From an uncultured Saprospiraceae bacterium (GTDB lineage Bacteria; Bacteroidota; Bacteroidia; Chitinophagales; Saprospiraceae), in NCBI GenBank assembly GCA_964423205.1, contig CAYRDX010000009.1, positions 6,535 through 70,534 of the forward strand: 64,000 nucleotides of DNA. The letters run 5' to 3'. The notes under the pieces are model-generated. The model was not told where the DNA came from and did no database searches. It was given only the letters and a program-made list of their open reading frames with translations. Shown piece after piece: positions 4,511 to 53,565 of this stretch; position 1 is the first letter of the stretch; every line of letters starts with the position of its first letter. The translations under genes were made by a program, and so were the position numbers.

Positions 4511-4558
4511 AAAAATAGAGAATTGTCATGTTTTACAACTGATGGAAGAGGCAAAGTT

Positions 4559-9953: not shown

Positions 9954-11555
9954 TCACATCCAACTCCTGCTGTCTGTTTCCATCTTGTACAAAACGACAT
10001 CCTGCAATGCCAGGGCTTTTTCCAGCGGTACAAAAGGAATGCTGACAGCACCCGCTGCCGTAAAAATATCGACATGGGTGAGCCCCTTGCGGTCGAGAAA
10101 CCAATTAGACCTCAGACCAATTGCCTGTACCTTGTACCATTGCATCAGAACAGTCCTGTGATTGAAAACTCCCCAACTTATGCGTATGCAATCTTCGCTA
10201 ACCTGCCAGAGCCAGTTTTGGTGGTATTTTTTACTGATTAAATACGCAAAAGGCAACCAGAACAGCCAAATCAGAATTCCCGACTGCAACCATGACCAGG
10301 TCAGTGCCATGAGTATTCCCACTGGAATGAATCCACTGACAATCATCTGTCTGTAAATAATCCGGTTGTTGATACCATGGTCATTCATTAGCTGTTCGCT
10401 TTCTTCGGGAAACCATGTTTGTCTGATGGCGTCCAGGTTCTCTGCACGGCACCCGGGAAGACTTCCGGTGTTACTTCTGCCAACCTGCACACTTGCCGCC
10501 TGGGGCATTGCCACGCTGACCAGCCCAAAATACCTTTTTAGAGGATTGCTCTTCCACATCAGGTACTGGATTTTACGAAGGTTAACAGAGAATTCCTCTC
10601 TTGTGAACAGACCACTTTCAATTTTGAAACCCCTTTCAGTTCGCCAGAAATGCAGGTTAAAATACTTTAGCACCGTATTAAAGAGGGTCAATAAAAAGGA
10701 GACAATAAGGAAGACCGGAAGAGCCATTAAGATGTAATATCCAAAATTGATGGCTTGTTCCATGCCGAGCAGTTCTTCTACTTCTTCTGCGAGGTCAAAA
10801 CCCAACGCCTGCTCCAGGTCATCGAAAAATCCAATGAAGAAGGCCAGCATGATACCAGCCGTGCGCAGATGGTTTTGGCTGACGCCAATTTTCAGGAGGT
10901 CAACAGGACTCAGGTTAAAGATTAGTTCGTTGGGTTTCGGTTTTTCATAGTTACTATTGGAAGCAAACTTTCCCGAAGGCTCCATCACTTCGCCATGGTT
11001 TTCATAAACAGGGGATTGCTCCATCAGCTCTCCCTTTTCTACACCAAAACCGGATGTTTCCGGAGCAACATTGGCTTCAACGCTACTCCTGGTTTTTTGG
11101 CCCATCACATATTCCCTGAACTCAAGTGCCTGATTTTTACCAATCGCATGGAGGTGGAATTCCTTTTGTTTGGAGCCGGCAGTTTCAATTTCAATTTCCA
11201 CCACATCGAGAGCCTGATGCAGGATGCCCCGTTTCAAATTGACCGACTGGACACGGTCGAGTGGTACATTAATTTTGATTTTTCTGAGAATCCCTTTTTC
11301 GAGAATCAGTTCTCCCTGCCGGATATAAAAGTAGTACCTGAAGTAGGATATGACCGAACCGATGGCACCCAATACGGTCAGTGCAACAAACACCATTGTA
11401 AACCCATCGAAGAGGTTCCGTTTAGGATTAAACAGCACCACCAGTATGATAACCCAAAGCTGTTTCACCAAAATCCGGAAGTTGTCGCCGAGCAGAAAGA
11501 CGATGGCAGCAGGTGCTTGCCGTGTGGGGTGAGAGAAAGGTGTGTTTACAGTCAT
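9954..11555 (-). CDS. membrane protein with repeated bacterial PH (bPH_2/YdbT-like) domains
   Basis: About 530-aa ORF with alternating TM hairpins and repeated modules (ILEKGILRKIKINVPLDRVQSVNL; ESGLFTREEFSVNLRKIQ). The ATG at 11555 is preferred over the TTG at 11579. Confidence 0.7.
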   Translation of the reverse strand: MTVNTPFSHPTRQAPAAIVFLLGDNFRILVKQLWVIILVVLFNPKRNLFDGFTMVFVALTVLGAIGSVISYFRYYFYIRQGELILEKGILRKIKINVPLDRVQSVNLKRGILHQALDVVEIEIETAGSKQKEFHLHAIGKNQALEFREYVMGQKTRSSVEANVAPETSGFGVEKGELMEQSPVYENHGEVMEPSGKFASNSNYEKPKPNELIFNLSPVDLLKIGVSQNHLRTAGIMLAFFIGFFDDLEQALGFDLAEEVEELLGMEQAINFGYYILMALPVFLIVSFLLTLFNTVLKYFNLHFWRTERGFKIESGLFTREEFSVNLRKIQYLMWKSNPLKRYFGLVSVAMPQAASVQVGRSNTGSLPGCRAENLDAIRQTWFPEESEQLMNDHGINNRIIYRQMIVSGFIPVGILMALTWSWLQSGILIWLFWLPFAYLISKKYHQNWLWQVSEDCIRISWGVFNHRTVLMQWYKVQAIGLRSNWFLDRKGLTHVDIFTAAGAVSIPFVPLEKALALQDVVLYKMETDSRSWM

Positions 11556-11695
11556 TAGCTTTTGAATGGTTGAAGGCAACTAATCACAGAAGCTCAAATA
11601 TGCGGCATGTCGGCCGTTTCTCAAAATTCATTAATTTTCCGGGCTTTCTTTAACACCCTTAATTATGAGTAGGACATAATTGTAACAGAGCATCA

Positions 11696-12631
11696 ATGCA
11701 AATAAACAAAACCCTTATCGAACCCGGTCAAAATGAAGTGGTGCGTATGCTCGTAGGGCGGTTGCCCTCTGATACGCGCATTTACATGAATGTGCATGTT
11801 TACCGAAGCACAGAACCCGGGCCAGTGGCTCTGGTTATGGCGGGTGTTCATGGCGATGAAATCAACAGCGTTGAAATTGTCAGGAGAACCATTGCATCTG
11901 AGATGTTCACCCATCTGCAAAAAGGAAGCGCCATTGTTATACCGGTTTTGAACGTTTATGGCTTCAATAATTTTTCCAGGGATGTTCACGACGGTAAAGA
12001 CGTAAACCGAAGTTTTCCGGGCTCAGCCCGTGGCTCTTTGGCAGCTCGTGTAGCCAACCTTTTTACAAAAAACATATTGCCGATAATTGACTTTGGGGTC
12101 GATTTTCACACAGGCGGTAACAGCAATTACAATTATCCCCAGGTTCGATATTCCCGGCACCATAGTCCTTCCAGAGAATTGGCAGAGGCCTTTGCTGCTC
12201 CGTTTTCCATCGCCTCCAAACCCATTCCCAAATCACTTCGTAAGACGGCTCTGGATGCAGGCAAACCCATCATCGTATTTGAGGGTGGTGAAAACCTTCG
12301 CTTCGACGGACTGGCCATCGATAAAGGCCTGGCAGGGCTGCAAAGACTGTTAGTGTCCAAAGGCATGTTGGATGGGGTTCATACAACTGCGAAGACTGTC
12401 TATATTTCAGCTACCAGTTGGATGCGGGCCGCACGACCGGGCTTGTTCCGCTGGTGGAAACAGTCTGGACAACAAGTGCAAAAAGGTGAGCCAATCGCCG
12501 TCATCAATGACCCTTTCGGTCTGGAGGAAATCAGGGTTCTGGCGTCAAAAGATGGCTATATCATCGGCCACAACAACGCCACCATTGTTGGGCAGGGGGA
12601 TGCGCTGTTTCATATTGGGATGGGGGAGTGA
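11696..12631 (+). CDS. succinylglutamate desuccinylase/aspartoacylase family protein (M14-like)
   Basis: 311-aa ORF. AGVHGDEINS zinc-ligand motif and VPVLNVYGF, consistent with the AstE/AspA family. Confidence 0.75.
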   Translation: MQINKTLIEPGQNEVVRMLVGRLPSDTRIYMNVHVYRSTEPGPVALVMAGVHGDEINSVEIVRRTIASEMFTHLQKGSAIVIPVLNVYGFNNFSRDVHDGKDVNRSFPGSARGSLAARVANLFTKNILPIIDFGVDFHTGGNSNYNYPQVRYSRHHSPSRELAEAFAAPFSIASKPIPKSLRKTALDAGKPIIVFEGGENLRFDGLAIDKGLAGLQRLLVSKGMLDGVHTTAKTVYISATSWMRAARPGLFRWWKQSGQQVQKGEPIAVINDPFGLEEIRVLASKDGYIIGHNNATIVGQGDALFHIGMGE

Positions 12632-12854: not shown

Positions 12855-12870
12855 CCCCGAGTACTCGGGG
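12855..12870. repeat. 16-bp perfect palindrome CCCCGAGTACTCGGGG, copy 2
   Basis: Identical to 814-829. It is flanked on both sides by the word caatttcc and lies 33 nt upstream of the ATG at 12904. Confidence 0.9.
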
Positions 12871-22496: not shown

Positions 22497-22626
22497 TGAA
22501 GGCAAAAATAAAAAGGCAAAAGGCAAAAGTTTTCCAACTGATTTTCAAATTGTTTTCTTAACCACTTGAAGACCAGTTGAAAAACTTTTGCCTTTTTACT
22601 TTTGCCTTTTTACTTTTTACTTTTTC
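22497..22626. repeat. long hairpin element built from aaaaggc/gcctttt words, copy 1 (complete)
   Basis: The left arm aaaaggcaaaaggcaaaagttttccaactg (22511-22540) pairs with cagttgaaaaacttttgcctttttacttttgccttttt (22574-22611). A truncated copy lies at 51103-51172. Confidence 0.8.
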
Positions 22627-23874: not shown

Positions 23875-23949
23875 GGGTCGTTAGCTCAGTTGGTTTAGAG
23901 CGCATGCTTGACAGGCATGAGGTCACTGGTTCGAATCCAGTACGACCCA
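23875..23949 (+). tRNA. tRNA-Val (anticodon GAC)
   Basis: Manual cloverleaf: acceptor gggtcgt/acgaccc, D arm gctc..gagc, anticodon stem catgc/gcatg with loop ttGACag, and T arm actgg ttcgaat ccagt. Confidence 0.9.
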
Positions 23950-23960
23950 CTTCTTAACTA

Positions 23961-24002
23961 TGAGATATGAGATATGAGATATGAGATATGAGATATGAGA
24001 TA
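23961..24002. repeat. heptamer tandem array (tgagata x6)
   Basis: Six perfect copies lie between the two tRNAs. The unit is the reverse complement of the tcatatc-type unit of the 647-716 array. Confidence 0.9.
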
Positions 24003-24064
24003 TGAATTGAGTGATAAGAACTTTGTCTTATCATCATTCATCATTCCTAGTTCTTTGTTAAATA

Positions 24065-29649: not shown

Positions 29650-32600
29650 ATGGAAAAAGCAACACATAAAACAGTAGCGATTGTTGGTATTGGAGCAGTG
29701 ATGCCTGACGCCCACGATTTACCACTATTCTGGAATAATATTAAACAGGGAAAATACAGTGTAACCGAAGTCCCTGAAAATAGATGGAGTTTGGATAAAT
29801 ACTACGACCCCGATCCAAAAGTTCCGGACAAAACCTACAGCAAAATTGGAGGCTGGGTGAAAGATGATTATTGGGATCCTCTGAAATGGGGTTTGCCTAT
29901 TCCGCCAAGAATCTGCGACCAGATGGACAATACACAACGCTGGGCCATCAGTGCTACCAGACAGGCATTGGCAGATTTTGGTTTCCCTGAGAAGGATTTT
30001 GACCGCGACCGTACAGCCGTAATTTTTGGTGTGGCCATGGGAGGCGACCAACACTTGTATTCTGCAGCCCGGATTTTTGTCCCTGAATATATTGGTTTGC
30101 TGGACAAATCACCTGGATTTGCCACTCTCCCTGCTGATTTACGCAAGAAAATTATCGGCGAGATGACCGGCCAATTAGGGGATATATTCCCCAGCATTTC
30201 AGAAGATACCATGCCTGGTGAACTGTCGAATATTGTTGCTGGCCGCATCGCAGCACTATACAATTTCCACGGACCAAATTACGTGGCTGATGCAGCCTGT
30301 GCTTCCGCAATGGCCGGCATTTCTGCAGCTATCGAAGGTTTGGTCAGTCACGACTACGACATGGTTGTAACTGGAGGCATCGATGCCAACATGAGCCCGA
30401 CAACCTTTGTGAAATTCTGTAAAATTGGTGCACTCTCAGCCACTGGTACAAGGCCTTATGCCGAAGGAGCCGATGGTTTTATCATGGGAGAAGGGGCTGC
30501 AGTTTTCCTGCTGAAACGACTGGCAGATGCTGAGCGCGATGGTGATAAAATATATGCTGTCATTCGCTCGGTAGGCGGATCCAGCGACGGTAAAGGAAAG
30601 GGCATCACGGCTCCCAACCCGGCAGGTCAGGTATTTGCTGTGAAAAGAGCCTGGGAAAATTCCGGCGTTTCACCTTCAACTGCTACCATGATAGAAGGAC
30701 ATGGTACATCGACATCCGTGGGTGATGCTGTGGAATTGAAATGCCTGCAGGATGTCTTCGGACAATTCAACCTGCCGGTTGGGTCAATCGCTCTGGGTTC
30801 CATTAAATCCAATATCGGCCACCTGAAGGGTGCTGCAGGAGCTGCGGGAATTGCGAAGGCCGTCATGTCATTGCATGAAAAAGTGCTGCCACCCAGCATC
30901 AACTTCCATTCCCCCAATTCCGGTTTTGAATTCGAAAAATCACCTTTTGCTGTGAACACACATTTGAGGCCTTGGGAGATGAAAAACGGAATCCCGCGCC
31001 GTTGTGGTGTGAGTGCATTCGGTTTTGGTGGAACAAATTTCCATGTGGTTCTGGAAGAACACATACCAGGAAAAATACTTTCCGAACAAAAAACTCAGGT
31101 ATTCATGGCCAGCGAACCGGAAGCACCCCATGCTGCACCATTGAAAGTCCCTCTCAGAGGGGCGATGGTGAAAGGTACAAGTTCAAAGGAGGCTTTGGTT
31201 GCTTTCCTGGAAGAAAGCCTTACCAAAGCAGAAGGCGGATGGACGCCAGCCATTGAACCACCACTGAAGGCTGACTTAAAAGCTGATCATCGCATTGCCC
31301 TTGATTTTGAAAATTCAACCGACCTGGCCGGTAAAATCAAGAGAGCTATAAACGGTTTGCAATCCGACAATCCCAAAATATGGGATGCACTGAATGCCAA
31401 AGGTATTTTTTATAGCCAGGGGCCGGTTACGAAAACGGCATTCCTCTTCACTGGTCAGGGTTCCCAGTACATCAATATGCTGAAAGAGCTGAAAGAAATT
31501 GAACCCATCGTGAAGAAAATTTTCGACGAGGCCGATGAAGTCATGAAGCCCTTGTTGGGAAAGCCCTTGACGGAGTACATCTTTTTCGATAGAAACGATA
31601 AAGAAGCGGTGGAAGCAGCCACCAAAAACCTGATGCAGACGGAAATAACACAACCCGCTGTATTGTCAGTTGATTATGCCCTTTTTAAAATGATGGAAGC
31701 TTACGGGATAAAACCCGACTATGTCATGGGTCACAGTTTAGGGGAATATGGAGCTTTAGTTGCTTCAGGAGCGCTGGAGTTTGCCAGCGCACTGAAAGTG
31801 GTCAGTGCCCGCGGTGCGGAAATGGCCAACGTGAAAGTGGAGGACAAGGGCATCATGGCTGCAGTTTTCGCTTCTCCGGACCAGATTTCGGAAGTCATCA
31901 GCAAGATTGATGGTTATGTTGAAATTGCCAATGTGAACAGTTTCGGGCAATGCGTGATAGGCGGTGAAACAGAATCGACTTTGGCAGCCATGAAAGCCTG
32001 TAAAGCAGCGGGTTACCATGTGACTCAATTGCCGGTTAGCCATGCCTTCCACACAAGAATTGTAGCGCCTGCCAGTATTCCATTTGCCAATGCGCTCAGA
32101 AATGGGAAATTGAAAGCACCTTCTATTCCAGTAATTTCCAACGTTACCGGCGAATTTTATCCCACAGGAGCGGATGTAGTTCCTGAGATACTGGATCTAC
32201 TCTCCAGGCAGATTGCCTCCCCGGTTCAGTTTGTAAAAGGCATCAACAAATTGTACGAAAGTGGTGTCCGTGTATTTGTGGAATGTGGTCCAAAAAGGGC
32301 CTTGCATGGTTTTGTCAAAGACATCACAGCTGAAAAGGAAGATGTGATGAACCTTTTCACCAACCAGCAAAAAGGTGGTGATATAGCTTCATTTAACCAG
32401 GCACTTTGTGGCTTGTATGCAGCCGGACTTGGATACGGCCGTGAAGAAATAAAAGTTGAGGTCCCACAGCAGGAAGTTCCTGCAGTGCAAGTTCAGGATA
32501 CTATGCCTGTCGCAAGCAAATCGGCTCCGGTACCAACTTTTTCCAGCCAACAGACATCATCACCGGAAACCCCTTCCAGCACACCATCTGGTGATAGATA

Positions 32601-35600
32601 TTCCCAACTAGGTAAGCTCTTTGTCGAATTCATGGACAAAGCCAATGCAGTGTACTCAGGAACTACCGGATCGCGTCCTGTGCAGGATATCTGGATAACC
32701 GGTGCAGCAGTGGGACTACCCAAGGTGGATGGAGTTTTCAGCGACTCCAACGTGGAGAAACTGCTGAATGGCGAGCAATTGATTAGTAACATTCCCGCTG
32801 AGTTTCAACAGGCCATGCTCGACAGGAATATCACACGCCTGGTGAAAATGGGACACGGCGGGCCACGGTTCGAAACCATTTCCACAATCAATGAAGTCAT
32901 AAAACTGGCCGCCCGAAAGGCCGGTATGGATTTAGCCGCCGATTTTGGATACCCCTCCAAACGTATGAGCGCCCTCGACATCACGACGGAACTGGCCATC
33001 GGTGCTGGCATCGATGCTATGCGGGATGCTGGTATTCCAATGGTCATGCACTATAAGACAACGACCACAGGCTCCAAATTACCCGACAGATGGTTGCTGC
33101 CTGCCCAGATGCAAAATGATACAGGCATCATTTTCTGTTCGGCTTTTCCTGGTTACAACAACTATGCAAAGGAAATGAGGGAGTACTTTGAAAATAAGGC
33201 TCTCAAAGAACAGTTGTCTGTATTGAACAGTCTGCGAACCAGGATAGGTGCACAAAACGGCGCAGAAAAATTACATCTGGAAATTGATTCCCAAATCCTA
33301 AGGGTTCAGAAAGAACTGGAGAAAACACCTTATTCCTTTAACCGCAGATTCTTGCTGCGGGTATTGGCAATGGGCCACTCTCAGTTTGCTGAATATATCG
33401 GAGCCAAAGGCCCCAATACGCAAATCAACTCTGCTTGCGCAAGCACAACCCTGGCAGTGGGAATGGCAAAAGACTGGATTGAAGCTGGACGTTGCAAAAG
33501 AGTTATCATAATTGCAGCCGATGACATTACAGCTGATGAAACGATTGGCTGGTTCTCCAGTGGTTTTCTGGCCGCGGGTGCAGCCGCAACAGACGCCAGG
33601 GTGGAAGACGCAGCCCTGCCATTCGACAAACGTCGCCACGGCATGATAGTCGGTATGGGTGGTGCAGCCATAGTGGTGGAATCAGGTGGTTCAGCTTCTG
33701 AAAGAGGCATCAAACCAATTTGTGAAGTACTTAGCACGGTAGCAGCTAACAGCGCTTTCCACGCCACTCAGCTCGATGTGGACCATATCAAGTGCATCAT
33801 GGAGGATCTCATAGCAGAGGCAGAACGCAAGTGGGGAATCGACCGCTATGAAATTGCCGCTCAAACGGTTTTTGTCTCTCATGAAACCTATACTCCCGCC
33901 AGAGGCGGCAGTGCTTCCGCTGAAATATTTGCGCTGCGCCATGTTTTCCAGTCGGCTGCCGATAAAATAGTCATTGCCAACACGAAAGGCATGACAGGAC
34001 ATGCCATGGCAGTTGGTATTGAAGATATACTGGCCATTAAATCTCTGGAAACCGGATGGGTACCGCCTGTTCCCAATTTCAAAGAAGTTGACCCGGAACT
34101 CGGAATGCTCAACCTGTCGAAAGGAGGAGCCTATCCCATTCGTTATGCACTCAGATTGGGTGCCGGTTTTGGTTCACAAATAGCCATGAGTCTCCTGCGC
34201 TGGACACCTGCTTCCGTAGATGGGTCCAGGCCAAAACCCAATCAGTTGGGGTATGCTTATCGCATCAACGACAATGACAGATGGAGAAACTGGTTGAAGG
34301 TAATCAGCGGTAAAGACGCACCTGAAATGGAGGTTGTAAAACGAACCCTCAGGATAAAAGATAAGTTTGGTGAACTATTAAGTGAGCCAGAAGATAACCT
34401 GAACGGCTTTGCTGAAGAAACTGCATCAACTGAACAGACCGTAACGGTGGAAACCACAGGAGTCGTGGTCGAAAACAATGGCCGAACTGAGTTATCAGAT
34501 CCGGTCAGAGACCGAATTTTAACACTCATTTCAGAAAAGACAGGTTACCCGGTCGATATGCTCAATCCCGACCTTGACCTGGAGGCCGATCTGGGTATCG
34601 ACACGGTAAAACAAGCTGAATTGTTTGCCGAAATCCGCGGCGAATACGGCATTGAGCGGGACGACAACGTTCAGTTGTCCAATTTCCCGACGCTCAACCA
34701 CATTATACAGTTCGTTTACGACAAACGTCCAGGCCTAAAGCAGGCTGCCTCAACTGTTGCTACTTCCCCAACTCTATCAGCAGCCTCAATGGACGCTCCT
34801 GCAACGGCGGCGGCCTCGTCCCCCCTCGAAAGGAGTTGGGGGGTGACCTCACCAGCCCTGACTGATGGAGTCAAGGAAAAAATTCTCTTTCTCATTGCCG
34901 AAAAAACCGGCTACCCGGTTGAAATGCTCGACCCTGAGCTCGACCTGGAGGCAGACCTCGGCATCGATACAGTCAAACAGGCAGAACTCTTTGCTGAAAT
35001 CCGCGGCAACTGGGGCATCGACAGGGACGATAACCTGCAACTGGCAGATTTCCCGACTATCAATCATATCGTCCAGTTTGTCTATGACAGGAAACCAGAA
35101 TTGAAGCAGGATTCGGTTTTACTGTCTGTGACCACCACTACTTCCGCAGACCTAGTGTCTGAAAAAGCTCCGGAAGACCATATAAAGTTTAGTAATCTCG
35201 AGGCTGTCAATCAGATTCCCAGACGCATTCCAACACCGCAACTCAGACCAGCACTGAAATATTGCAAAGCATCAGGTGTGCAACTCAACGATGAAACAAC
35301 AGTGCTCGTCATGCCCGACAATGGTGGAGTCGCAAAGTCTCTCCTTTCGCAACTGAAGAAATCGGGAGCGAAAGTGCATGTGCTTGATCAAGGTATTACC
35401 GCTGACCAACTCAGCAAACAGCTCTGTGATTTATCGGCAAATGGGCCCATTCACGGCGTGTACTGGTTGCCTGCACTCGATTACGAGGGTGACATTGAAA
35501 AACTGAGTTACAGGGATTGGAAAGCAGCCACGCAACTTCGTGTGAAGCTTCTTTACGCAACAATGCGTGAACTGGTGCTGCTGAAAAACGAAAACGTTTT

Positions 35601-37716
35601 CCTCGTCTCTGCAACATGCATGGGTGGCCATTTCGGGTACGACGAAAATGGTGCGCTTGCTCCTTTGGGTGGTGCGGTTTCTGGTTTTACAAAAGCATAC
35701 AAACGGGAGCATCCTGCTGCACAGGTGAAAGTGGTCGATTTTGAGAAATCACGCAAGACCACAGCCAACGCACAATTGCTGATTGACGAAACGCTCTTAG
35801 ATCCAGGTATTGTGGAAGTCGGATACAAAGATGAACAAAGATGGAGCATTGGTTTGCAGGAGGTGCCCGTTCCGCAGGGAAGCGAAGGCATGAAACTAAC
35901 CAAAGAATCCACTTTCCTGGTTACCGGTGCAGCCGGCAGCATCACCTCGGCCATCACGGCTGACCTTGCCGCTGCATCATCGGGAACGTTCTTTCTGCTC
36001 GACCTCACTCCTTCACCTGATCAATCGGATGCTGACCTGATTCGCTTCGCAAATGATAAGGAGGGTCTGAAGCGTGAAATTTTCAACCGCATGACTGCAT
36101 CTGGCGATAAACCCACGCCAGTCAAAGTGGACAAAGAGCTCGCTGCGATCGAGCGCAGATATTCAGCCCTTGCTGCCATTGAGGCAGTAGAAAAGGCCGG
36201 TGGCACAGCACACTATTACAGCGTTGACCTTCGTGACCAAAAGGCTGTTGCGGCAGCAGTGAAGGATATCAAAAAGAAAGTGAATAGGATTGATGTTATG
36301 CTGCACGCAGGAGGATTGGAAATCAGCCGTTTGCTGCCCGACAAGTCGCCGCAGGAATTCGACCTCGTATTTGATGTAAAAGCAGATGGCTGGTACAACC
36401 TGCTTTCGTCATTTGGCGAGTTCCATATCGGGGCAACTGTGGCCTTCAGCTCTATTGCCGGAAGGTTTGGCAACGGCGGCCAGACCGACTACAGTTCCGC
36501 CAATGACTTCCTTTGCAAGAGCACATCGAGCTTCCGCACCTACCGTCCGGAGACTCGTGGCATTGCACTCGACTGGACAGCATGGGGTGGTATTGGCATG
36601 GCTACCCGGGGTTCTATCCCTACAGTTATGAAACAAGCCGGCATCGACATGCTGCCACCGGAAGCGGGAATTCCGTTTATCAGAAAAGAACTGACTGCTG
36701 CCAATACCGGAATGGAAGTGGTAGTGGCACAGCGCCTCGGCAGGATGATGGAGGAATTTGATTATAATGGTGGACTTCAACCGGAAGCCGTCAGTGAAAG
36801 ACTGCAACAAAGCAAAGGGGTGATGGTGCAGGAAGTGGTGAAAATGGGCCTCTATGAAGGACTGGTTACCAAAGCAAGCTTCAATCCAAAAGAGCAGGGC
36901 TTCCTTTTCGATCACCAGATTAACGGCACCCCGGTATTGCCGGGTGTCATGGGCATCGAAGCGATGGTGGATGCCGCCACTTGTTTATTCCCGGAACTAC
37001 ATGTTCAGTCGGTTGAAGCTGTGGACTTTTTTGCTCCGTTCAAGTTTTATCGCTCAGAACCGAGAGAAGTGTTTGTGAAAGTCATCTATCTGGCAGATGG
37101 CTCTAATGTCGCAGCTAATTGCGAGTTGTTCGGTACCCGCAAACTACATGGCCAAACCAAAGAGGAGGTGAAGACTCACTTCAGCGCCAAAGTCTTTCTC
37201 GGAGAAAAAGCACCGGAAAAACCAGCACCATTGACAAAAAAATTAGATCCTTCGAAAAAGCAGGCAGTAGCTGTGCCGGATGATATTTACAAACTTTACT
37301 TCCACGGCCCGGCCTATCAGGTCATCGAAAAGACATGGAAGAAAGGGGAAGATATGGTTGGGCTTTACGCAAACGGTATTCCAGCCAACCACCATCCGGA
37401 GGAGCTGCAAACTCTGGCCCTGCCGCGGTTTGTGGAATTGTGTTTCCAGGTGGCTGGCATCACAGAAATGGGTGGACATGGAAGAATGGGATTGCCCAGG
37501 CACCTCGACTCACTGCAAATACACAGGCAAGCTGTTATTGGCAAAGCCAATTATTACGCTGTAGTGAGTCAGGATAATGGGGCTTACCATGCTTCTGTGG
37601 TGGATTCGAAAGGTGAAGTTTACCTGACCCTGAAGGGTTACCAGACGGTTGAGTTTATTTCGGATTTTGATAAAAATCTGTTGGTGCCTTTGCAGGCTGT
37701 GGCAGGAGGAGAGTAG
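29650..37716 (+). CDS. PfaA/HglE-like iterative type I fatty-acid/polyketide megasynthase: KS - AT - second KS-like domain - ACP - ACP - KR - PKS-type DH
   Basis: 2688-aa ORF. KS1 spans about 29671-31065 (DAACASAM Cys217, HGTSTSVGD, NIGHLKGAAG). AT spans about 31441-32320 (GHSLGEYG Ser696, VSHAFHT). A Pro/Ser-rich linker follows. KS2-like spans about 32689-34203 (NSACAST Cys1263, SHETYTP, TGHAMAVG). ACP1 is about 34501-34725 and ACP2 about 34864-35095 (both LGIDTVKQAELFAEIRG). KR spans about 35250-36720 (VTGAAGSITS, Tyr2281 in DYSSAND). DH spans about 36830-37700 (His2422 in DHQINGTPVLPG). Confidence 0.9.
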   Translation: MEKATHKTVAIVGIGAVMPDAHDLPLFWNNIKQGKYSVTEVPENRWSLDKYYDPDPKVPDKTYSKIGGWVKDDYWDPLKWGLPIPPRICDQMDNTQRWAISATRQALADFGFPEKDFDRDRTAVIFGVAMGGDQHLYSAARIFVPEYIGLLDKSPGFATLPADLRKKIIGEMTGQLGDIFPSISEDTMPGELSNIVAGRIAALYNFHGPNYVADAACASAMAGISAAIEGLVSHDYDMVVTGGIDANMSPTTFVKFCKIGALSATGTRPYAEGADGFIMGEGAAVFLLKRLADAERDGDKIYAVIRSVGGSSDGKGKGITAPNPAGQVFAVKRAWENSGVSPSTATMIEGHGTSTSVGDAVELKCLQDVFGQFNLPVGSIALGSIKSNIGHLKGAAGAAGIAKAVMSLHEKVLPPSINFHSPNSGFEFEKSPFAVNTHLRPWEMKNGIPRRCGVSAFGFGGTNFHVVLEEHIPGKILSEQKTQVFMASEPEAPHAAPLKVPLRGAMVKGTSSKEALVAFLEESLTKAEGGWTPAIEPPLKADLKADHRIALDFENSTDLAGKIKRAINGLQSDNPKIWDALNAKGIFYSQGPVTKTAFLFTGQGSQYINMLKELKEIEPIVKKIFDEADEVMKPLLGKPLTEYIFFDRNDKEAVEAATKNLMQTEITQPAVLSVDYALFKMMEAYGIKPDYVMGHSLGEYGALVASGALEFASALKVVSARGAEMANVKVEDKGIMAAVFASPDQISEVISKIDGYVEIANVNSFGQCVIGGETESTLAAMKACKAAGYHVTQLPVSHAFHTRIVAPASIPFANALRNGKLKAPSIPVISNVTGEFYPTGADVVPEILDLLSRQIASPVQFVKGINKLYESGVRVFVECGPKRALHGFVKDITAEKEDVMNLFTNQQKGGDIASFNQALCGLYAAGLGYGREEIKVEVPQQEVPAVQVQDTMPVASKSAPVPTFSSQQTSSPETPSSTPSGDRYSQLGKLFVEFMDKANAVYSGTTGSRPVQDIWITGAAVGLPKVDGVFSDSNVEKLLNGEQLISNIPAEFQQAMLDRNITRLVKMGHGGPRFETISTINEVIKLAARKAGMDLAADFGYPSKRMSALDITTELAIGAGIDAMRDAGIPMVMHYKTTTTGSKLPDRWLLPAQMQNDTGIIFCSAFPGYNNYAKEMREYFENKALKEQLSVLNSLRTRIGAQNGAEKLHLEIDSQILRVQKELEKTPYSFNRRFLLRVLAMGHSQFAEYIGAKGPNTQINSACASTTLAVGMAKDWIEAGRCKRVIIIAADDITADETIGWFSSGFLAAGAAATDARVEDAALPFDKRRHGMIVGMGGAAIVVESGGSASERGIKPICEVLSTVAANSAFHATQLDVDHIKCIMEDLIAEAERKWGIDRYEIAAQTVFVSHETYTPARGGSASAEIFALRHVFQSAADKIVIANTKGMTGHAMAVGIEDILAIKSLETGWVPPVPNFKEVDPELGMLNLSKGGAYPIRYALRLGAGFGSQIAMSLLRWTPASVDGSRPKPNQLGYAYRINDNDRWRNWLKVISGKDAPEMEVVKRTLRIKDKFGELLSEPEDNLNGFAEETASTEQTVTVETTGVVVENNGRTELSDPVRDRILTLISEKTGYPVDMLNPDLDLEADLGIDTVKQAELFAEIRGEYGIERDDNVQLSNFPTLNHIIQFVYDKRPGLKQAASTVATSPTLSAASMDAPATAAASSPLERSWGVTSPALTDGVKEKILFLIAEKTGYPVEMLDPELDLEADLGIDTVKQAELFAEIRGNWGIDRDDNLQLADFPTINHIVQFVYDRKPELKQDSVLLSVTTTTSADLVSEKAPEDHIKFSNLEAVNQIPRRIPTPQLRPALKYCKASGVQLNDETTVLVMPDNGGVAKSLLSQLKKSGAKVHVLDQGITADQLSKQLCDLSANGPIHGVYWLPALDYEGDIEKLSYRDWKAATQLRVKLLYATMRELVLLKNENVFLVSATCMGGHFGYDENGALAPLGGAVSGFTKAYKREHPAAQVKVVDFEKSRKTTANAQLLIDETLLDPGIVEVGYKDEQRWSIGLQEVPVPQGSEGMKLTKESTFLVTGAAGSITSAITADLAAASSGTFFLLDLTPSPDQSDADLIRFANDKEGLKREIFNRMTASGDKPTPVKVDKELAAIERRYSALAAIEAVEKAGGTAHYYSVDLRDQKAVAAAVKDIKKKVNRIDVMLHAGGLEISRLLPDKSPQEFDLVFDVKADGWYNLLSSFGEFHIGATVAFSSIAGRFGNGGQTDYSSANDFLCKSTSSFRTYRPETRGIALDWTAWGGIGMATRGSIPTVMKQAGIDMLPPEAGIPFIRKELTAANTGMEVVVAQRLGRMMEEFDYNGGLQPEAVSERLQQSKGVMVQEVVKMGLYEGLVTKASFNPKEQGFLFDHQINGTPVLPGVMGIEAMVDAATCLFPELHVQSVEAVDFFAPFKFYRSEPREVFVKVIYLADGSNVAANCELFGTRKLHGQTKEEVKTHFSAKVFLGEKAPEKPAPLTKKLDPSKKQAVAVPDDIYKLYFHGPAYQVIEKTWKKGEDMVGLYANGIPANHHPEELQTLALPRFVELCFQVAGITEMGGHGRMGLPRHLDSLQIHRQAVIGKANYYAVVSQDNGAYHASVVDSKGEVYLTLKGYQTVEFISDFDKNLLVPLQAVAGGE

Positions 37717-38211: not shown

Positions 38212-38910
38212 ATGTTGCCCCTCATGGTCTTTTGGCTTAGGCAAACTTCCAGTGAGTTGCCCAACTCACTGGTCTGGCTGCATCCATTGGAGTTGGAGAC
38301 ATTTTCTGCCTTTAAGTTTCCCAAAAAACAAAACGACTGGTTGCTCGGCAGATGGACGGCCAAAAAAGCCGTAATTAGTTTCCTTAAAGAAAGTCATCCC
38401 ACTCTCCAAAACTCTGATTTTGCCATCATCAGAGCAAAAGATGGGGCACCGGAAATTCACTGCGAAGCAGAACCTTTGCCTGCGTTCCTTTCACTGAGTC
38501 ACAGTCATGGAAAGGCATTTTGTATCGTTGCAAAACCTGGTTTTCGGATGGGTTGCGATTTGGAGAAAATTGAAAAACGCAGTCCACTATTCGTCCGGGA
38601 TTATTTCACTGCAAGTGAGCAGGAATTGCTCAGCGCTGTCGACTCTGAGAGACAACCACTGCTAACCAACCTTATTTGGAGTGCCAAAGAAAGCACCATG
38701 AAAGCACTGAGAACGGGGCTGCGAATTAACCCATTGCGAATTGAGGTGCAAATATCGCCTCCGCTTGATAAAGAGGAATGGCAGGAACTACGAACTGTTT
38801 ATTCAGATAACACAATCAATTTCCGTGGCTACTGGCAATCTGGAAGTGGATATGTTTACACGGTGCTTTCGGATTGCCTGGAACGGGAGTTGGAAGAGTT
38901 GAAAACTTAG
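38212..38910 (+). CDS. 4'-phosphopantetheinyl transferase (Sfp/EntD/PfaE type)
   Basis: 232-aa ORF. RWTAKKAVISFL, SLSHSHG, GCDLEKIE (Mg-binding motif) and WSAKESTMKAL (W/KEA motif). Confidence 0.85.
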   Translation: MLPLMVFWLRQTSSELPNSLVWLHPLELETFSAFKFPKKQNDWLLGRWTAKKAVISFLKESHPTLQNSDFAIIRAKDGAPEIHCEAEPLPAFLSLSHSHGKAFCIVAKPGFRMGCDLEKIEKRSPLFVRDYFTASEQELLSAVDSERQPLLTNLIWSAKESTMKALRTGLRINPLRIEVQISPPLDKEEWQELRTVYSDNTINFRGYWQSGSGYVYTVLSDCLERELEELKT

Positions 38911-43547: not shown

Positions 43548-43600
43548 ACTGTTGAAAGTTGAGTTGGTTGAGTTGGTTGAAAGGGTTGAGAGGCAGAGTC

Positions 43601-43782
43601 GATTGGTTCTGGTTTTTGACTGGTTTTTGATTGACGATATATGATTGACGATATCAGATTTTTGATTTTCCGAGACAAGAACCGGCCGTTTGCGTCCCGA
43701 AAAATCAAATCCCGATAGCTATCGGGATACGTCTGATATCTTAAATCTGAAATCAAAAAACCCTTATAAACCAGAACCAATC
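43601..43782 (+). mobile_element. 182-bp MITE-like non-autonomous element, copy 1
   Basis: Perfect 15-bp terminal inverted repeats gattggttctggttt / aaaccagaaccaatc. The interior has a 20-bp palindrome atcccgatagctatcgggat and internal direct repeats (tgattgacgatat x2). There is no coding capacity. It is nearly identical to 47967-48148 in the opposite orientation. Confidence 0.8.
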
Positions 43783-43909
43783 AGCCCTGGGTTAGGGGGT
43801 TGAGAAAGTTGAGGCAATTGAGAGGTGCTATCTCAACTCAACCTTCTAAACTTCCTCAACCAACTCAACCACATCAGGAATTGTCATTTTTCCAAATAAA
43901 ATCAATGCC

Positions 43910-44113
43910 ATGAGTCTGAAAAAACTGATAACCCATTTCAATGAAAAAATGCAGTGGTACGACGTACCTATCCTGAAACTCACAGTGTTTTTTGCAACCC
44001 TGTTTCTTTTGACTGCCTGGCCGGCATTTCGTGAACTCTTACTCGGGATAGACTGGTACTGGTACCTGGGTCTAACCCTCATTATGATGTTTTATCTGAT
44101 GAAAAAGATGTAG
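43910..44113 (+). CDS. small hypothetical membrane protein (two TM helices)
   Basis: 67-aa ORF with two hydrophobic helices. I recognise no family and it may be non-coding. Confidence 0.3.
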   Translation: MSLKKLITHFNEKMQWYDVPILKLTVFFATLFLLTAWPAFRELLLGIDWYWYLGLTLIMMFYLMKKM

Positions 44114-44301
44114 AAATGATATTTTGCAATCGGTTGCAGAAGTCTTTTTCAATTTATTACCTTGTGCTTTCTATCTCGATTTTCAGTACTACTCCATCAA
44201 GTGTAGTAATGTAAACTCAGTGCAACACCTGTTTATAACCACCAGACACAGTATGCGAAACGCAGGGTGCTTCCAGGCTGTGTTTGCCAATTCACAGCGT
44301 T

Positions 44302-45441
44302 ATGCAAACCATGAAAGCAATCTCCATTTTGTTCTTCGTTCTGCCCATCGCATTTTCCTGTAATTCTGAATCAGCTCAAAAGGCAAGCTCCAGCAATGCC
44401 AATTCTTTGAAAGATGCCTACAAAGACAACTTTTACATTGGCGCTGCTTTGGGTGCCGAACACATCAGAGAAGAAGATCCAATAGCTTCTGGCCTCGTTT
44501 CCAAGGAATTCAACAGCCTCACAGCTGAAAACATTATGAAATGGATGTACATCCATCCAGAAAGGGGAAAGTTTAACTTCGAACTACCCGATAAGTTTGT
44601 GGCATTGGGTGAAAAACACGGGATGCAACTGATTGGACATACACTGATTTGGCACAGTCAGACAGCGCCCTGGGTAAATAACATTAAGACAGGCGGGGAG
44701 ATGGAAAAGGTGATGGAGGAACACATCAGTTCCATAGTCGGTCATTTCAAAGGTAAGATTCATGGCTGGGATGTGCTCAATGAAGTATTGAATGAAGACG
44801 GAACCTTGCGCGAATCCATTTTCCTGAAAACTATGGGAGAGTCTTATATCAAAAAAGCTTTTGACCTGGCGGCGGCTGCCGATCCTGAGGCCGAACTGTA
44901 TTACAACGATTACAACATTGAACAGCCCAGGAAAAGGGAAGGATGTATTAAAATGATAAAAAAGCTGCAGGAAAGCGGGACGAAAATTGATGGAGTTGGC
45001 ATTCAGGGTCACTGGGGATTAAATGGTCCTCCAGTGGAAGAAATTGAAAAGAGTATCATCGAGTACGCCGCCCTTGGACTTAAAGTGATGTTTACGGAAG
45101 TGGATATCAACGTATTACCCAACCCCTGGGACTTGACCGGTGCCGATGTGAGTTTGAACTATCCTGGCAGTCCACACATGAATCCCTATCCAGAGGGGCT
45201 TCCAGATTCTATTGCAATAAAACAAGCCAAACGCTACAAGGATATTTTCAAGGTACTCATCAAACACCAGGATAAAATTGACCGTGTAACTTTTTGGGGC
45301 GTAAATGATGGTCATTCCTGGAAAAACAACTGGCCGATAAAAGGCCGGACGGATTATCCTTTACTTTTTGATAGGGAGTTTAAACCGAAAAAAGCCTATT
45401 ACAGCGTAATGGAACTGAAAAACCCTGACATTAAACCTTGA
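44302..45441 (+). CDS. endo-1,4-beta-xylanase, glycoside hydrolase family 10
   Basis: Lipoprotein-like signal (ILFFVLPIAFSC), GHTLIWHSQ, WDVLNE (acid/base) and FTEVDI (nucleophile). Confidence 0.9.
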   Translation: MQTMKAISILFFVLPIAFSCNSESAQKASSSNANSLKDAYKDNFYIGAALGAEHIREEDPIASGLVSKEFNSLTAENIMKWMYIHPERGKFNFELPDKFVALGEKHGMQLIGHTLIWHSQTAPWVNNIKTGGEMEKVMEEHISSIVGHFKGKIHGWDVLNEVLNEDGTLRESIFLKTMGESYIKKAFDLAAAADPEAELYYNDYNIEQPRKREGCIKMIKKLQESGTKIDGVGIQGHWGLNGPPVEEIEKSIIEYAALGLKVMFTEVDINVLPNPWDLTGADVSLNYPGSPHMNPYPEGLPDSIAIKQAKRYKDIFKVLIKHQDKIDRVTFWGVNDGHSWKNNWPIKGRTDYPLLFDREFKPKKAYYSVMELKNPDIKP

Positions 45442-45469
45442 TATAAAAATCGCTTTAAACAGGTAACAG

Positions 45470-46891
45470 ATGAACAACGTTTCACAAAAACTATCCGTGC
45501 GGGAAAAGGTAGGATATTCCCTCGGCGATCTTGCTGCAAACCTGGTTTTCCAGACCCTTTTGACATTTCTCGCCTTCTTTTATACTGATGTGTACGGGTT
45601 GAAACCAGAAATAGCTACGCCGATTATTTTTTTCGTCGGCATTTTCGCTGCTGTCATTTTTAACCCCATCATGGGGGCAGTGGCCGACCGCACCAATACG
45701 CGCTGGGGAAAATTCAGGCCCTGGATACTTTGGACTGCAGTGCCACTGGGGGCCATAGCGTTGCTGGCATTCAGTACGCCAAACTTCAGCATGCAGGGCA
45801 AAATCATTTATGCCATCATCACCTACACCCTTTTGCTGATGTTGTATGCCGCCAACAACCTGCCTTATGCGGCCCTGAGTGGCGTTATCACCGGTAATAT
45901 GGCTGAGCGAAACAGCCTTTCTTCCTATCGCTTCGTGGCAGTTATGGCAGCACAATTCATCGTTCAGGTACTGATGTATCCCTTCGTAGACTACATGGGA
46001 GGTGGCGACAGGGCTCTTGGCTTTTCCAAAGTAATGACCTTTCTGGCAGCGACCGGCACTTTGCTTTTGCTGATAACCTTTTTTACAACGAAAGAAAGGA
46101 TAGTGCCCAAGCCGGAACAGAAATCCACCCTGAAGGAAGATTTAGACGACCTAATCAAAAACCGGCCCTGGGTAATCATGCTGTTGCTTACCATCCTGGT
46201 GTTCATCACGCTCGCACTGAAAGGGGGAATGTATGTTTATTATTTTGAAAATTACCTCGACAAAGCAGCAATAGGTGGCTTCCTCGGCAAGTTTGGACTA
46301 CAAAATATCGAAAATCCGGCATCCTATGGTTTCAGTGTTTTCAACGGCTGCGGCATCGTTTTCATGATCATCGGAATCATGTTTTCAAAACCACTGGCAG
46401 ATAAATATGGTAAACGGGATGTGTTCGGAATAGCGCTGGTGATTTCTACATTGTTCATACTGGTACTGTATTTTATATCACCATCCGGTATCAGCATGGT
46501 GATGCTTGCGCAAATCCTGCATGGCTTTTTCTATGGCATTACCATCCCAATTCTATGGGCAATGATTGCGGATGTGGCAGATTATTCGGAATGGAAAAAT
46601 AACCGCCGGGCCACTGCCATTATCTTTTCAGCCATGATGGTCGGCCTAAAACTGGGCCTTACTTTCGGTGGCGCCCTTGTTACGGGTATCTTGGGTGTTT
46701 ACGGATATGATGCGACTCTGACAAGTCAATCCGATGCTGCGGTTCAGGGAATCAGGATGTCCGTCAGCGTTTATCCGGGTATTTTCTTCTTGATTGGCGC
46801 GGCGCTTCTTTTCTTTTATGAAATTAACAAGGCAAAGGAGACGCAGATTGAGCAGGAATTGGCTGCACGCAGATTGGAGTCAAAACAATAA
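45470..46891 (+). CDS. glycoside-pentoside-hexuronide (GPH):cation symporter family MFS transporter
   Basis: LSVREKVGYSLGDLAANLVFQ N-terminus, RWGKFRPW motif and 12 TM helices. Confidence 0.85.
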   Translation: MNNVSQKLSVREKVGYSLGDLAANLVFQTLLTFLAFFYTDVYGLKPEIATPIIFFVGIFAAVIFNPIMGAVADRTNTRWGKFRPWILWTAVPLGAIALLAFSTPNFSMQGKIIYAIITYTLLLMLYAANNLPYAALSGVITGNMAERNSLSSYRFVAVMAAQFIVQVLMYPFVDYMGGGDRALGFSKVMTFLAATGTLLLLITFFTTKERIVPKPEQKSTLKEDLDDLIKNRPWVIMLLLTILVFITLALKGGMYVYYFENYLDKAAIGGFLGKFGLQNIENPASYGFSVFNGCGIVFMIIGIMFSKPLADKYGKRDVFGIALVISTLFILVLYFISPSGISMVMLAQILHGFFYGITIPILWAMIADVADYSEWKNNRRATAIIFSAMMVGLKLGLTFGGALVTGILGVYGYDATLTSQSDAAVQGIRMSVSVYPGIFFLIGAALLFFYEINKAKETQIEQELAARRLESKQ

Positions 46892-46948
46892 CACGGGTAT
46901 TTCACCCTCCTGCTTTAATTGCAACTAAGGTCAAAAAATAACTTCATC

Positions 46949-47968
46949 ATGGAAAAACCTTGGGAAGATCACATCATACAGGACTATAACGAAAGGGCCA
47001 TTTCCCCACCCCTGGTCACTCATATGTTCACAGCGGACCCCTCCGCTCATTTGTTTCAAGGCCGGATTTACATTTATCCATCTCATGACTTCGACGCGGG
47101 AATACCGTTCAATGACAATGGCGACCATTTCGGCATGGAGGACTATCATGTCTTTAGTATGGATGAACCGGGTGCATCGGTGACTGACCACGGTGTGGCT
47201 CTGCATGTCAGGGACGTCCCCTGGGCTGAACGGCAGATGTGGGCGCCAGATGCGGCATATAAGGACGGCAAATACTATTTCTATTTCCCGGCCAAACGCA
47301 AAGACGGCATTTTCCAGATTGGAGTGGCAGTGGGTGACAGACCTGAAGGGCCTTTCGTTCCTGAACCCGAAGCTATCGAAGGTTCTTATTCTATCGACCC
47401 AGCGGTTTTCAAAGATGATGATGGCTGCTACTACATGTACTTCGGAGGCATCTGGGGTGGTCAATTACAAAAGTACCGGAATAATATTTTCCATGAAAAC
47501 AATGAACTGCCCAAAGGTGATGAACCTGCTTTAGGCCCAATTGTGGCCAAGCTGAGTGACGACATGAAACAGTTTGCTGAAACACCCAGAGAGATTAAAA
47601 TTCTGGATGAAAACGGGATGCCACTATTGGAAAAAGACAATGACCGTCGGTTTTTCGAAGCATCGTGGATGCACAGATATCAGGGTAAATATTACTTCTC
47701 CTATTCAACAGGTGATACTCATTTCCTTTGTTATGCAACAGGTGATAACCCTTACGGGCCTTTCACTTATGGAGGCAGAATTCTGAACCCCGTGGTTGGT
47801 TGGACCAGTCATCATTCTATTTGCGAGTTTATAGGAAAATGGTACCTGTTTTACCACGATTCTCTGTTGTCAAAAGGTATTACTCACCTGCGTTCCATAA
47901 AAATGACGGAGTTGACATACCGGCCGGATGGAAGTTTCGAAACACTGAACCCCTATAGGCAGGGCTGA
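46949..47968 (+). CDS. glycoside hydrolase family 43 (beta-xylosidase/alpha-L-arabinofuranosidase type)
   Basis: FTADPSAHLFQGRIYIYPSHD, MWAPDAAYKDGKYYFYF and EASWMHRYQGKYYFSYS. ATG 46949 is preferred over TTG 46919. The stop codon overlaps the first bases of MITE copy 2. Confidence 0.85.
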   Translation: MEKPWEDHIIQDYNERAISPPLVTHMFTADPSAHLFQGRIYIYPSHDFDAGIPFNDNGDHFGMEDYHVFSMDEPGASVTDHGVALHVRDVPWAERQMWAPDAAYKDGKYYFYFPAKRKDGIFQIGVAVGDRPEGPFVPEPEAIEGSYSIDPAVFKDDDGCYYMYFGGIWGGQLQKYRNNIFHENNELPKGDEPALGPIVAKLSDDMKQFAETPREIKILDENGMPLLEKDNDRRFFEASWMHRYQGKYYFSYSTGDTHFLCYATGDNPYGPFTYGGRILNPVVGWTSHHSICEFIGKWYLFYHDSLLSKGITHLRSIKMTELTYRPDGSFETLNPYRQG

Positions 47969-48148
47969 TTGGTTGTATTTTATAAGGGTTTTTTGATTTC
48001 AGATTTAAGATATCAGACGTATCCCGATAGCTATCGGGATTTGATTTTTCGGGACGCAAACGGCCGGTTCTTGTCTCGGAAAATCAAAAATCTGATATCG
48101 TCAATCATATATCGTCAATCAAAAACCAGTCAAAAACCAGAACCAATC
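47967..48148 (-). mobile_element. 182-bp MITE-like non-autonomous element, copy 2 (inverted relative to copy 1)
   Basis: By manual alignment it differs from the reverse complement of 43601-43782 at only about three positions, all in one terminal repeat (gattggttgtattt vs gattggttctggtt). The flanks extend the inverted repeat (ccctataggcagggctgattgg ... ccaatcaaccctgccttataggg). Confidence 0.8.
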
Positions 48149-48193
48149 AACCCTGCCTTATAGGGATTAGGTAGAACCTGTCAAGAAAAGAAA

Positions 48194-50937: not shown

Positions 50938-51102
50938 ATTTCGAAGCAGATTAGCAATCTGACTATTGGTGTATAACAAGTGACAATTGAAACTGTAACT
51001 GAAATTCAACATTTGTTTACCTGTAAATTTGTATGGTGATGGAGGTAAAATTTGTTTTACCTGAATTCACCAAAAACATAAGATCCATGCCTTTTAGGAA
51101 CA

Positions 51103-51172
51103 AGTAAAAAGTAAAATGGCAAAAGGCAAAAGTTTTCCAACTGATTTTCAATTGGTTAAGAAAACAATTTGG
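51103..51172. repeat. truncated copy of the aaaaggc-word hairpin element seen at 22497-22626
   Basis: gtaaaaagtaaaatggcaaaaggcaaaagttttccaactgattttcaattggttaagaaaacaatttg matches one arm plus the loop of the reverse complement of copy 1. The second arm is missing. Confidence 0.7.
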
Positions 51173-53255: not shown

Positions 53256-53423
53256 GGCCTTTTGGTTTTCTGTTCTTTTTACGCAGTCCACAGATACGAA
53301 GGACACGGTTGATTTTACAACAAAGTAATTTGAGAATTTAAGAGATAAGACGAGGCTGCGTCATAAGTGTTTTTCCCGCAGATTGCACTGATCATACCGC
53401 TGTTTTTCCTTTAGGAGTTTTTT

Positions 53424-53565
53424 ACCACTGAGACACTGAGAGCACTAAGAGCCACAGAGAGAACTCCGTGAGGCTCCGTGTCTCGGTGTCTTCGTAGTTC
53501 AAAAAAAACGCAGATGATTTGTTCCGCGACATCTGCGTGTCCATTTGCGCAAATCCGCGGGAAAA
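53424..53565. repeat. imperfect palindrome of CTCYGTG heptads followed by a CGCAGAT/ATCTGCG hairpin
   Basis: accactgagacactgagagcac...cacagagagaactccgtgaggctccgtgtctcggtg has its two halves inverted. It is followed by a perfect 9-bp stem acgcagatg / catctgcgt (53508-53538). Confidence 0.7.

Follow-up and report, generated by a model that had tools for sequence, protein, structure and literature searches.

Why should the xylan genes of a bacterium lie between two near-identical, inverted copies of a small repeat? The question arises in a stretch of 64,000 nt (hereafter, the window) from an uncultured Saprospiraceae bacterium (assembly GCA_964423205.1, contig CAYRDX010000009.1, positions 6,535 to 70,534), in which such a pair brackets genes for a GH10 xylanase (GH, glycoside hydrolase), a sugar symporter and a GH43 enzyme. 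The original prediction for this DNA had offered three readings of the arrangement: a composite-transposon-like unit, an invertible segment, or two independent insertions of a transposable element of the miniature inverted-repeat type (MITE). Our analyses indicated that the repeats very probably arose as two independent insertions of the same non-autonomous DNA transposon, a MITE of 196 bp with tens of copies in the genome. Since two separate insertions of an element with tens of copies would make such bracketing ordinary, the inverted arrangement around the xylan genes is most likely coincidental and would have no function of its own.

Structure and limits of the element

A repeat search of the window identified a single long inverted pair (43591-43804 and 47945-48158; 214 nt, 95% complementary), which was also the longest repeat present. 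The near-identical inverted pair reported earlier around the GH10-symporter-GH43 genes was therefore real, but its length of 182 bp had to be revised to 196 bp after analysis of the ends. These limits were set because similarity between the copies runs 7 nt past the 15-bp terminal repeats on each side and because metagenome contigs part from the window sequence at the same places. Contigs from two runs of one subsurface-metagenome study (X1 and X2) and from an unrelated aquatic metagenome (X4) diverged at 43592-43601 and 43789-43790, the edges of copy 1, and contigs diverged at 47958-47960 and 48154-48159, the edges of copy 2. The two subsurface runs contain the locus itself (94% and 79% of sampled words), in the form of contigs that break inside the element. 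The element is laid out as CAGGGCT GATTGG ... CCAATC AGCCCTG, and its parts are as follows (TIR, terminal inverted repeat):

43594-43789, plus strand: MITE copy 1, 196 bp (CAGAGTC...AGCCCTG), end A on the left and end B on the right, by alignment and end analysis
47960-48155, minus strand: MITE copy 2, 196 bp, inverted relative to copy 1 and with 5 differences from it, by alignment and end analysis
43594-43615, plus strand: copy 1 TIR, end A, CAGAGTCGATTGGTTCTGGTTT, with its partner at 43768-43789
43768-43789, minus strand: copy 1 TIR, end B, CAGGGCTGATTGGTTCTGGTTT as read on the minus strand
47960-47981, plus strand: copy 2 TIR, end B, CAGGGCTGATTGGTTGTATTTT, bearing three clustered substitutions
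48134-48155, minus strand: copy 2 TIR, end A, CAGGGTTGATTGGTTCTGGTTT as read on the minus strand
43709-43728 (copy 1) and 48021-48040 (copy 2): 20-nt perfect palindrome ATCCCGATAGCTATCGGGAT
43661-43709 (copy 1), with its copy 2 counterpart at 48040-48088: second internal hairpin, TTTGATTTTCCGAGAC...GTCCCGAAAAATCAAA

Three of the four element ends carry CAGGG and the remaining one CAGAG. The TIRs, 22 bp long, are imperfect; those of copy 1 are complementary at 19 of 22 positions. The 15-bp TIRs described earlier were found to be present, but as the inner part of these longer repeats; they read gattggttctggttt, changed to gattggttgtatttt at one of the four ends, in copy 2. Similarly, the count of about three substitutions within one terminal repeat held for the 182-bp core (43601-43782 aligned with 47967-48148 in reverse complement), where the only difference is CCAG to ATAC (positions 43771, 43772 and 43774), but not for the full 196-bp copies with their five. 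The internal 20-bp palindrome was located in both copies, as expected.

Each copy is a long imperfect palindrome with two internal hairpins, and the predicted folds of the copies were far stabler than those of shuffled sequence (z = -6.2 and -11). A mechanical 64-codon frame spans the element; it had no Pfam hit and no homologue among 5.8 billion proteins. The earlier statement that the element holds no ORF (open reading frame) is thus correct in the functional sense, although such a frame does cross it. In the Rfam search of the window only two tRNAs reached the gathering score, and the element gave only spurious, sub-threshold microRNA-like matches. With its length of 196 bp, its lack of coding capacity, its 22-bp TIRs, a target duplication at copy 2 and many dispersed copies (the last two are described below), the element has the properties of a MITE.

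Insertion sites of the two copies

Evidence for transposition came from copy 2, which lies across the end of the GH43 gene.

47951-47959: left target-site duplication of copy 2, CCCTATAGG, encoding P-Y-R of GH43
48156-48164: right target-site duplication of copy 2, CCTTATAGG
46949-47968, plus strand: GH43 enzyme (P0001), 339 aa as called
47966-47968, plus strand: present GH43 stop codon, TGA, within copy 2 and supplied by the element (...NPYRQG, then stop)
48168-48170, plus strand: inferred ancestral GH43 stop codon, TAG (...NPYRD, then stop), now cut off from the gene by the insertion

The 9-mers flanking copy 2 agree at eight of nine positions, for which the chance is about 1e-4 for unrelated 9-mers; the target-site duplication that had been suggested as a check was therefore found at this copy. 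Deletion in silico of copy 2 together with the right-hand repeat produced a GH43 protein ending ...TLNPYRD, followed by the TAG at 48168-48170, and this restored C-terminus is that of the relatives P0006 and P0007. Eleven GH43 relatives (75-80% identity) are of the same length, several with NPYRD or DPYRD as their final residues. The GH43 stop codon lies inside copy 2, as had been predicted, because the element inserted in the last codons of the gene, so that the final two codons and the stop now come from the element. The spacer between this gene and the next GH43 gene grew from 23 to 225 nt through the insertion. Together, the sharp CAGGG-repeat ends, the 9-bp duplication and the restored reading frame show that copy 2 is a transposition-type insertion, and one by which a stop codon was rewritten harmlessly.

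Copy 1 is situated in a region of GTTGAG word repeats downstream of a gene for a thioredoxin-like protein, where it breaks the run of words. The GTTGAG/CTCAAC hairpin in which it had been placed earlier was confirmed.

43558-43590 (left arm) and 43837-43869 (right arm): GTTGAG word hairpin
43585-43593: 9 nt to the left of copy 1, GTTGAGAGG, a possible decayed duplication
43790-43798: 9 nt to the right of copy 1, GGTTAGGGG

Copy number and target preference

The metagenome runs allowed us to ask how many copies the element has. In X1 and X2 the summed contig depth over the element was 80-610, compared to 3.6-7.8 for the flanks, a ratio of 20-100 times, and 51-61 contig pieces per run fell on the element at 85-100% identity. 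Short collapsed unitigs had depths of 25-75, while unique pieces bearing a flank had depths of 3.6-7.4, equal to that of the window. Because the depth of the element is high while the unique flank-bearing pieces share the depth of the window, these data indicate that tens of copies reside in the same organism or population. The dispersed copies have unrelated flanks, the situation for which the original prediction had foreseen that the bracketing would be coincidental. They also support its reading of two independent MITE insertions, together with the duplication at copy 2 and the result of its excision; a general preference for word-repeat hairpins, which formed part of that reading, was not apparent, as only copy 1 lies in one.

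The flanks of the copies differ from one another, yet resemble CCYWWWRGG (CCTTTGGGG, CCGAAAAGG, CCCAAAGGG, GATTTAAGG and CCCATCGGG). This target is symmetric and of the same length as the 9-bp duplication. One diverged copy, with other flanks, was present in the unrelated aquatic metagenome X4. No sequence on the element was found in a metatranscriptome (X5), and a plasmid search for the element gave no match. A scan of Joint Genome Institute (JGI) metagenome contigs with GATTGGTTCTGGTTTTTGAC returned four matches, all of them chance matches inside genes, and a scan of viral contigs with the terminal repeat returned three chance matches in one gene family.

A candidate transposase family

The ends of the element suggest how it may have moved. 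CAGGG ends and duplications of 8-10 bp are the mark of the ISAs1 family in ISfinder. Consistent with this, the H-repeat around yhhI in E. coli K-12 is bounded by CAGGG...CCCTG (1291 bp), and its YhhI protein carries the DDE_Tnp_1_assoc and DDE_Tnp_1 domains; an annotated ISAs1 element of Acaryochloris has the same bounds and a perfect 10-bp duplication. For ISArsp11 a repeat of CAGGGCTGATGCAAAGTCG and a duplication of 10 bp have been described (PMC6305408), and its first 10 nt, CAGGGCTGAT, equal those of our element at all ten positions. As CAGGG ends and 9-10-bp duplications fit the ISAs1 family, we consider it on balance probable that the element is moved by a transposase of this family. Any autonomous partner would be expected to carry the end sequence CAGGGCTGATTGG.

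Based on these observations, we propose that a non-coding element increased to tens of copies in the genome of this uncultured member of the Bacteroidota, each insertion presumably being made by a 9-bp staggered cut at a CCYWWWRGG-like site. Mobilization would have been in trans, most likely by a DDE transposase of the ISAs1 family whose gene is at another place in the genome. One copy would have landed in the GTTGAG word repeats and the other in the last codons of the GH43 gene.

Gene order at the xylan locus

The content of the 4.2-kb segment between the copies was as originally described: a small ORF, a GH10 xylanase, a GPH-type symporter and the GH43 enzyme listed above.

43910-44113: 67-aa ORF between copy 1 and the GH10 gene, with no Pfam hit
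44284-45441, plus strand: GH10 xylanase (Pfam PF00331, E = 2.8e-102)
45470-46891, plus strand: MFS_2 (GPH-type) sugar symporter (Pfam PF13347, E = 6.4e-82)

Downstream of the GH43 gene are a larger GH43 beta-xylosidase, an SGL-family protein and a GH30 enzyme; upstream of copy 1 are a SpoIID/T9SS protein (T9SS, type IX secretion system) and the thioredoxin-like protein. An exact-protein look-up of the genes of the window found no match on record. The nearest relatives of the GH43 gene, at three loci (L122, L123 and L124, the last from a Saprospiraceae metagenome-assembled genome), sit in clusters of the order GH67-GH10-MFS_2-GH43-UxuA-SGL. L123 runs on into genes for HtrA, HSP20 and a methyltransferase, in the same order as in the window and at 71-83% nucleotide identity to it. 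The order and orientation of GH10-MFS_2-GH43, SGL, HtrA, HSP20 and methyltransferase are shared with these relatives, and the element is absent from all three loci. Because relatives without the element have the GH10-symporter-GH43 triad in the same synteny and orientation, gene order identifies the triad as ancestral at this place and in the ancestral orientation relative to SGL.

The genes directly outside the triad differ from those of the relatives, in that the window has no GH67 gene upstream and no UxuA gene downstream. A search of the window for remnants of GH67, UxuA and XylA was negative, which carries little weight at this divergence. No counterpart of the interval 43870-44283 exists at the loci of the relatives; there, GH10 is preceded by a GH67 or CE4 gene. 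In L124, a 1.7-kb gap after GH43 contains no called gene, and positions 11300-12560 there appear to encode mannonate dehydratase (UxuA), which was probably missed or disrupted in that assembly.

Alternative explanations

We considered whether the two copies and the 4.2-kb segment between them could be a composite transposon that brought, or can still move, the xylan cassette. Both outer ends bear the CAGRG terminal repeat in the right orientation, so that they would in principle be usable by a transposase, and the immediate neighbors of the cassette are not those seen in the relatives, with no GH67 gene upstream and no UxuA gene downstream. However, GTTGAGAGG and CCTTATAGG, the flanks on the outer sides, do not form a duplication; copy 2 is flanked by a duplication of its own, and taking out the element with one repeat restores the GH43 frame; and relatives that have no copy of the element show the triad, SGL, HtrA, HSP20 and methyltransferase genes in the same order and orientation. 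Given this synteny, a duplication that belongs to copy 2 alone and outer flanks that do not match, arrival of the cassette as a composite transposon is refuted, and we regard the composite unit as a whole as exceedingly improbable. Pairs of insertion sequences (ISs) or MITEs in inverted orientation do serve as substrates for homologous recombination, and the roughly 170 bp of identical inverted sequence here could be one, so that recombination between the copies would invert the cassette with respect to the GH43 and GH30 genes downstream. Such an invertible switch is very unlikely, since the repeats are generic multicopy elements rather than sequences specific to this locus and the assembled orientation is that of the relatives. 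Moreover, no inversion joints were seen in the contigs, though contigs cannot span the repeat. The window has no gene or domain of a site-specific recombinase, and each copy has kept matching flanks on its two sides; because these flanks belong together, the majority state in the assembly is the uninverted one. The third alternative, a structured repeat of the host (a hairpin of the repetitive extragenic palindromic, REP, or bacterial interspersed mosaic element, BIME, kind, a small RNA gene or a terminator module) that recombination or duplication had multiplied, would account for the very stable predicted fold, for the arms of tandem words, which are also seen in other intergenic hairpins of the window, and for a palindrome with a T-rich tail that scores as terminator-like. 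We judge it unlikely, because any long inverted repeat would give such stability, while the sharp CAGGG ends, the 9-bp duplication and the restored frame at copy 2 point to transposition. In addition, the element has no Rfam match and no GTAG or CGTC head; REP and BIME units are 20-40-nt imperfect palindromes with such a head, present in hundreds per genome, in contrast to a 196-bp element with transposon-type ends.

Several observations nevertheless weigh against two MITE insertions moved by an ISAs1-family transposase. The flanks of copy 1 match at only six of nine positions and lie in low-complexity word repeats, and for copy 1 and the X4 copy alike a match of 6/9 is barely above the expectation from a shared target consensus. 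The figure of tens of copies was obtained from summed de Bruijn contig depth in a metagenome, in which some copies could belong to related strains. Among the ORFs of the 64-kb window there was no transposase gene, including any of the DDE_Tnp_1_assoc/DDE_Tnp_1 type, and the autonomous partner with matching TIRs that had been envisaged was found neither in the window nor in the scans of JGI metagenomes, plasmids and viral contigs. The assignment to ISAs1 is based on 5-10 nt at the termini and on duplication length. Lastly, the arms consist of short words in tandem and in this resemble native intergenic hairpins of the same genome, and it is for this reason conceivable that the element could have originated as a host hairpin that gained transposon ends.

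Possible effects on transcription

If the repeats are two MITE insertions, they would be neither a mobility nor a switching device of the xylan locus, only two products of an active, lineage-restricted element family, and its copies would explain the fragmented assemblies of this organism. The insertions may still have had local consequences. In copy 2 the palindrome is followed by TTGATTTTTC, a terminator-like site on the plus strand that is co-directional with GH43 and precedes the downstream GH43 gene; in copy 1 the palindrome with TTGATTTTTC is a terminator-like site on the minus strand. The hairpin and T-rich tail of copy 2 could terminate or process read-through RNA. A strong hairpin is now placed in the xylan operon, and it may uncouple the expression of the two GH43 genes. 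The Bacteroidota-type promoter motif TAnnTTTG was not present in or beside either copy. A sigma-70-like match inside the element was set aside because, to our knowledge, Bacteroidota do not use this promoter type.

The 20-nt palindrome in other Bacteroidota

The palindrome ATCCCGATAGCTATCGGGAT, situated at the apex of the MITE, occurs at no other position in the window, even when three mismatches are allowed. By contrast, more than 117 exact occurrences were found in species-representative genomes, compared to about 0.5 expected by chance (loci L001-L117 and L125-L127). None of the more than 117 genome loci listed carries the MITE, and the palindrome is therefore not specific to it; the X4 copy of the MITE in turn lacks the palindrome. 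Among the matches listed, all but one locus belong to Bacteroidota, of several classes, and conservation ends sharply at the 20-mer, with unrelated flanks and no duplication. About 10% of these sites are at the apex of longer hairpins and about one sixth are in long open frames, where the palindrome reads IPIAIGI or (D/N/H)PDSYRD. Such frames included signal peptides, loops of T9SS C-terminal domains and an E2 linker. In viral contigs the palindrome had three matches, against one and none for control palindromes, a difference that is not discriminating. There was no Rfam family for the palindrome, whether judged by gathering scores or by E-value, and a literature search for it or its peptides found no description.

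Filled and empty sites could be compared in genes for IS91-family transposases, between the nearest relatives L008 (filled) and P0121 (empty; 92% nucleotide identity) and between P0122 (filled, slightly decayed) and P0125 (empty; 87%). At this same site GTTA[AAATT]GAAA is changed to GTTA[palindrome]GAAA, a net gain of 15 nt. In tandem tRNA-Leu genes, the palindrome is in the D-loop of some copies, replacing AAAT or GAATT, beside normal copies. Neither ARAGORN nor Rfam called any of the palindrome-bearing tRNA-Leu copies:

L110, about 4590-4700, minus strand: palindrome-bearing tRNA-Leu gene or 5' fragment
L030, about 4450-4520: palindrome-bearing tRNA-Leu gene or 5' fragment
L010, about 4700-4810: palindrome-bearing tRNA-Leu gene or 5' fragment

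The palindrome thus appears in MITEs, intergenic hairpins, tRNA-Leu D-loops and, in frame, in protein genes, and in the clearest cases it replaces about 5 nt. We tentatively raise the possibility that it is a unit in its own right, distributed throughout the Bacteroidota, which comes and goes independently at short A/T-rich sequences (AAATT or GAATT, for example). If so, it would represent a mobile or templated element of minimal size, or the product of a novel repair or nuclease activity, and the subfamily of the MITE that underwent a burst would have acquired it secondarily.

Other features of the window

A second GC-rich perfect palindrome, CCCCGAGTACTCGGGG, is present at 813-830 and 12855-12870; at both places direct word repeats (caaatcct, caatttcc) surround it and a start codon follows 15-35 nt downstream. 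Other word-repeat hairpins, also intergenic, recur far apart in the window (22499-22621 and 51096-51171; 633-715 and 23947-24019; 9781-9937 and 53418-53469), with words that include AAGGCAAAAG, ATCTCAT/AGTTCAT and CTCCGTGG. One recurring pair shares 76 nt at 86%, and one member of a pair is in the xylan locus between SGL and GH30. A phage-like contig (L126) has the same word-repeat hairpin architecture, with the palindrome ATCCCGATAGCTATCGGGAT at the apex. Two further genes are of interest:

29650-37716: 2688-aa multidomain synthase (ketosynthase, KS; acyltransferase, AT; acyl carrier protein, ACP; ketoreductase, KR; dehydratase, DH), resembling a PfaA-type polyunsaturated fatty acid or polyketide synthase
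38212-38910: 4'-phosphopantetheinyl transferase, after the synthase

Comparison with known small elements

Correia elements of Neisseria are hairpin-forming MITEs of about 100-150 bp that lie between and within operons, with a TA duplication, 26-bp terminal repeats and hundreds of copies per genome. When co-transcribed they can carry promoter- or terminator-like signals and affect mRNA processing, and by analogy any effect of copy 2 would likely be of this kind. The Saprospiraceae element differs from them in its duplication and in the sequence of its terminal repeats. Rickettsia palindromic elements are short palindromic units of 100-150 bp, confined to one genus, which are found in frame in protein genes, in RNA genes and in intergenic regions. 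The 20-nt palindrome shares this range of locations, but it is much shorter, identical across a phylum, and replaces about 5 nt (net +15).

Within the Bacteroidota, the MITEs of Porphyromonas gingivalis (BrickBuilt and MITEPgRS) are non-coding, mostly intergenic and present in 10-20 copies per genome; their terminal repeats match resident IS elements, and they have internal tandem direct repeats (PMC4596501). They resemble the element described here in being non-coding Bacteroidota elements; they differ from it in their IS5-type ends (GAGACCTTTGCA), irregular duplications and host lineage, and they have no sequence similarity to it. The ISs of the ISAs1 family (ISAs1, ISEc1/H-repeat and ISArsp11) share with the element the CAGGG start and a duplication within 8-10 bp, which is 9 bp for the element and 10 bp for ISArsp11 and the Acaryochloris element. 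Unlike these ISs, the element is 196 bp long rather than about 1.3 kb, has no transposase gene, and its ends are unrelated to theirs past the first 10 nt. The element is a candidate for an ISAs1-type MITE of the Bacteroidota, one whose target consensus is defined.

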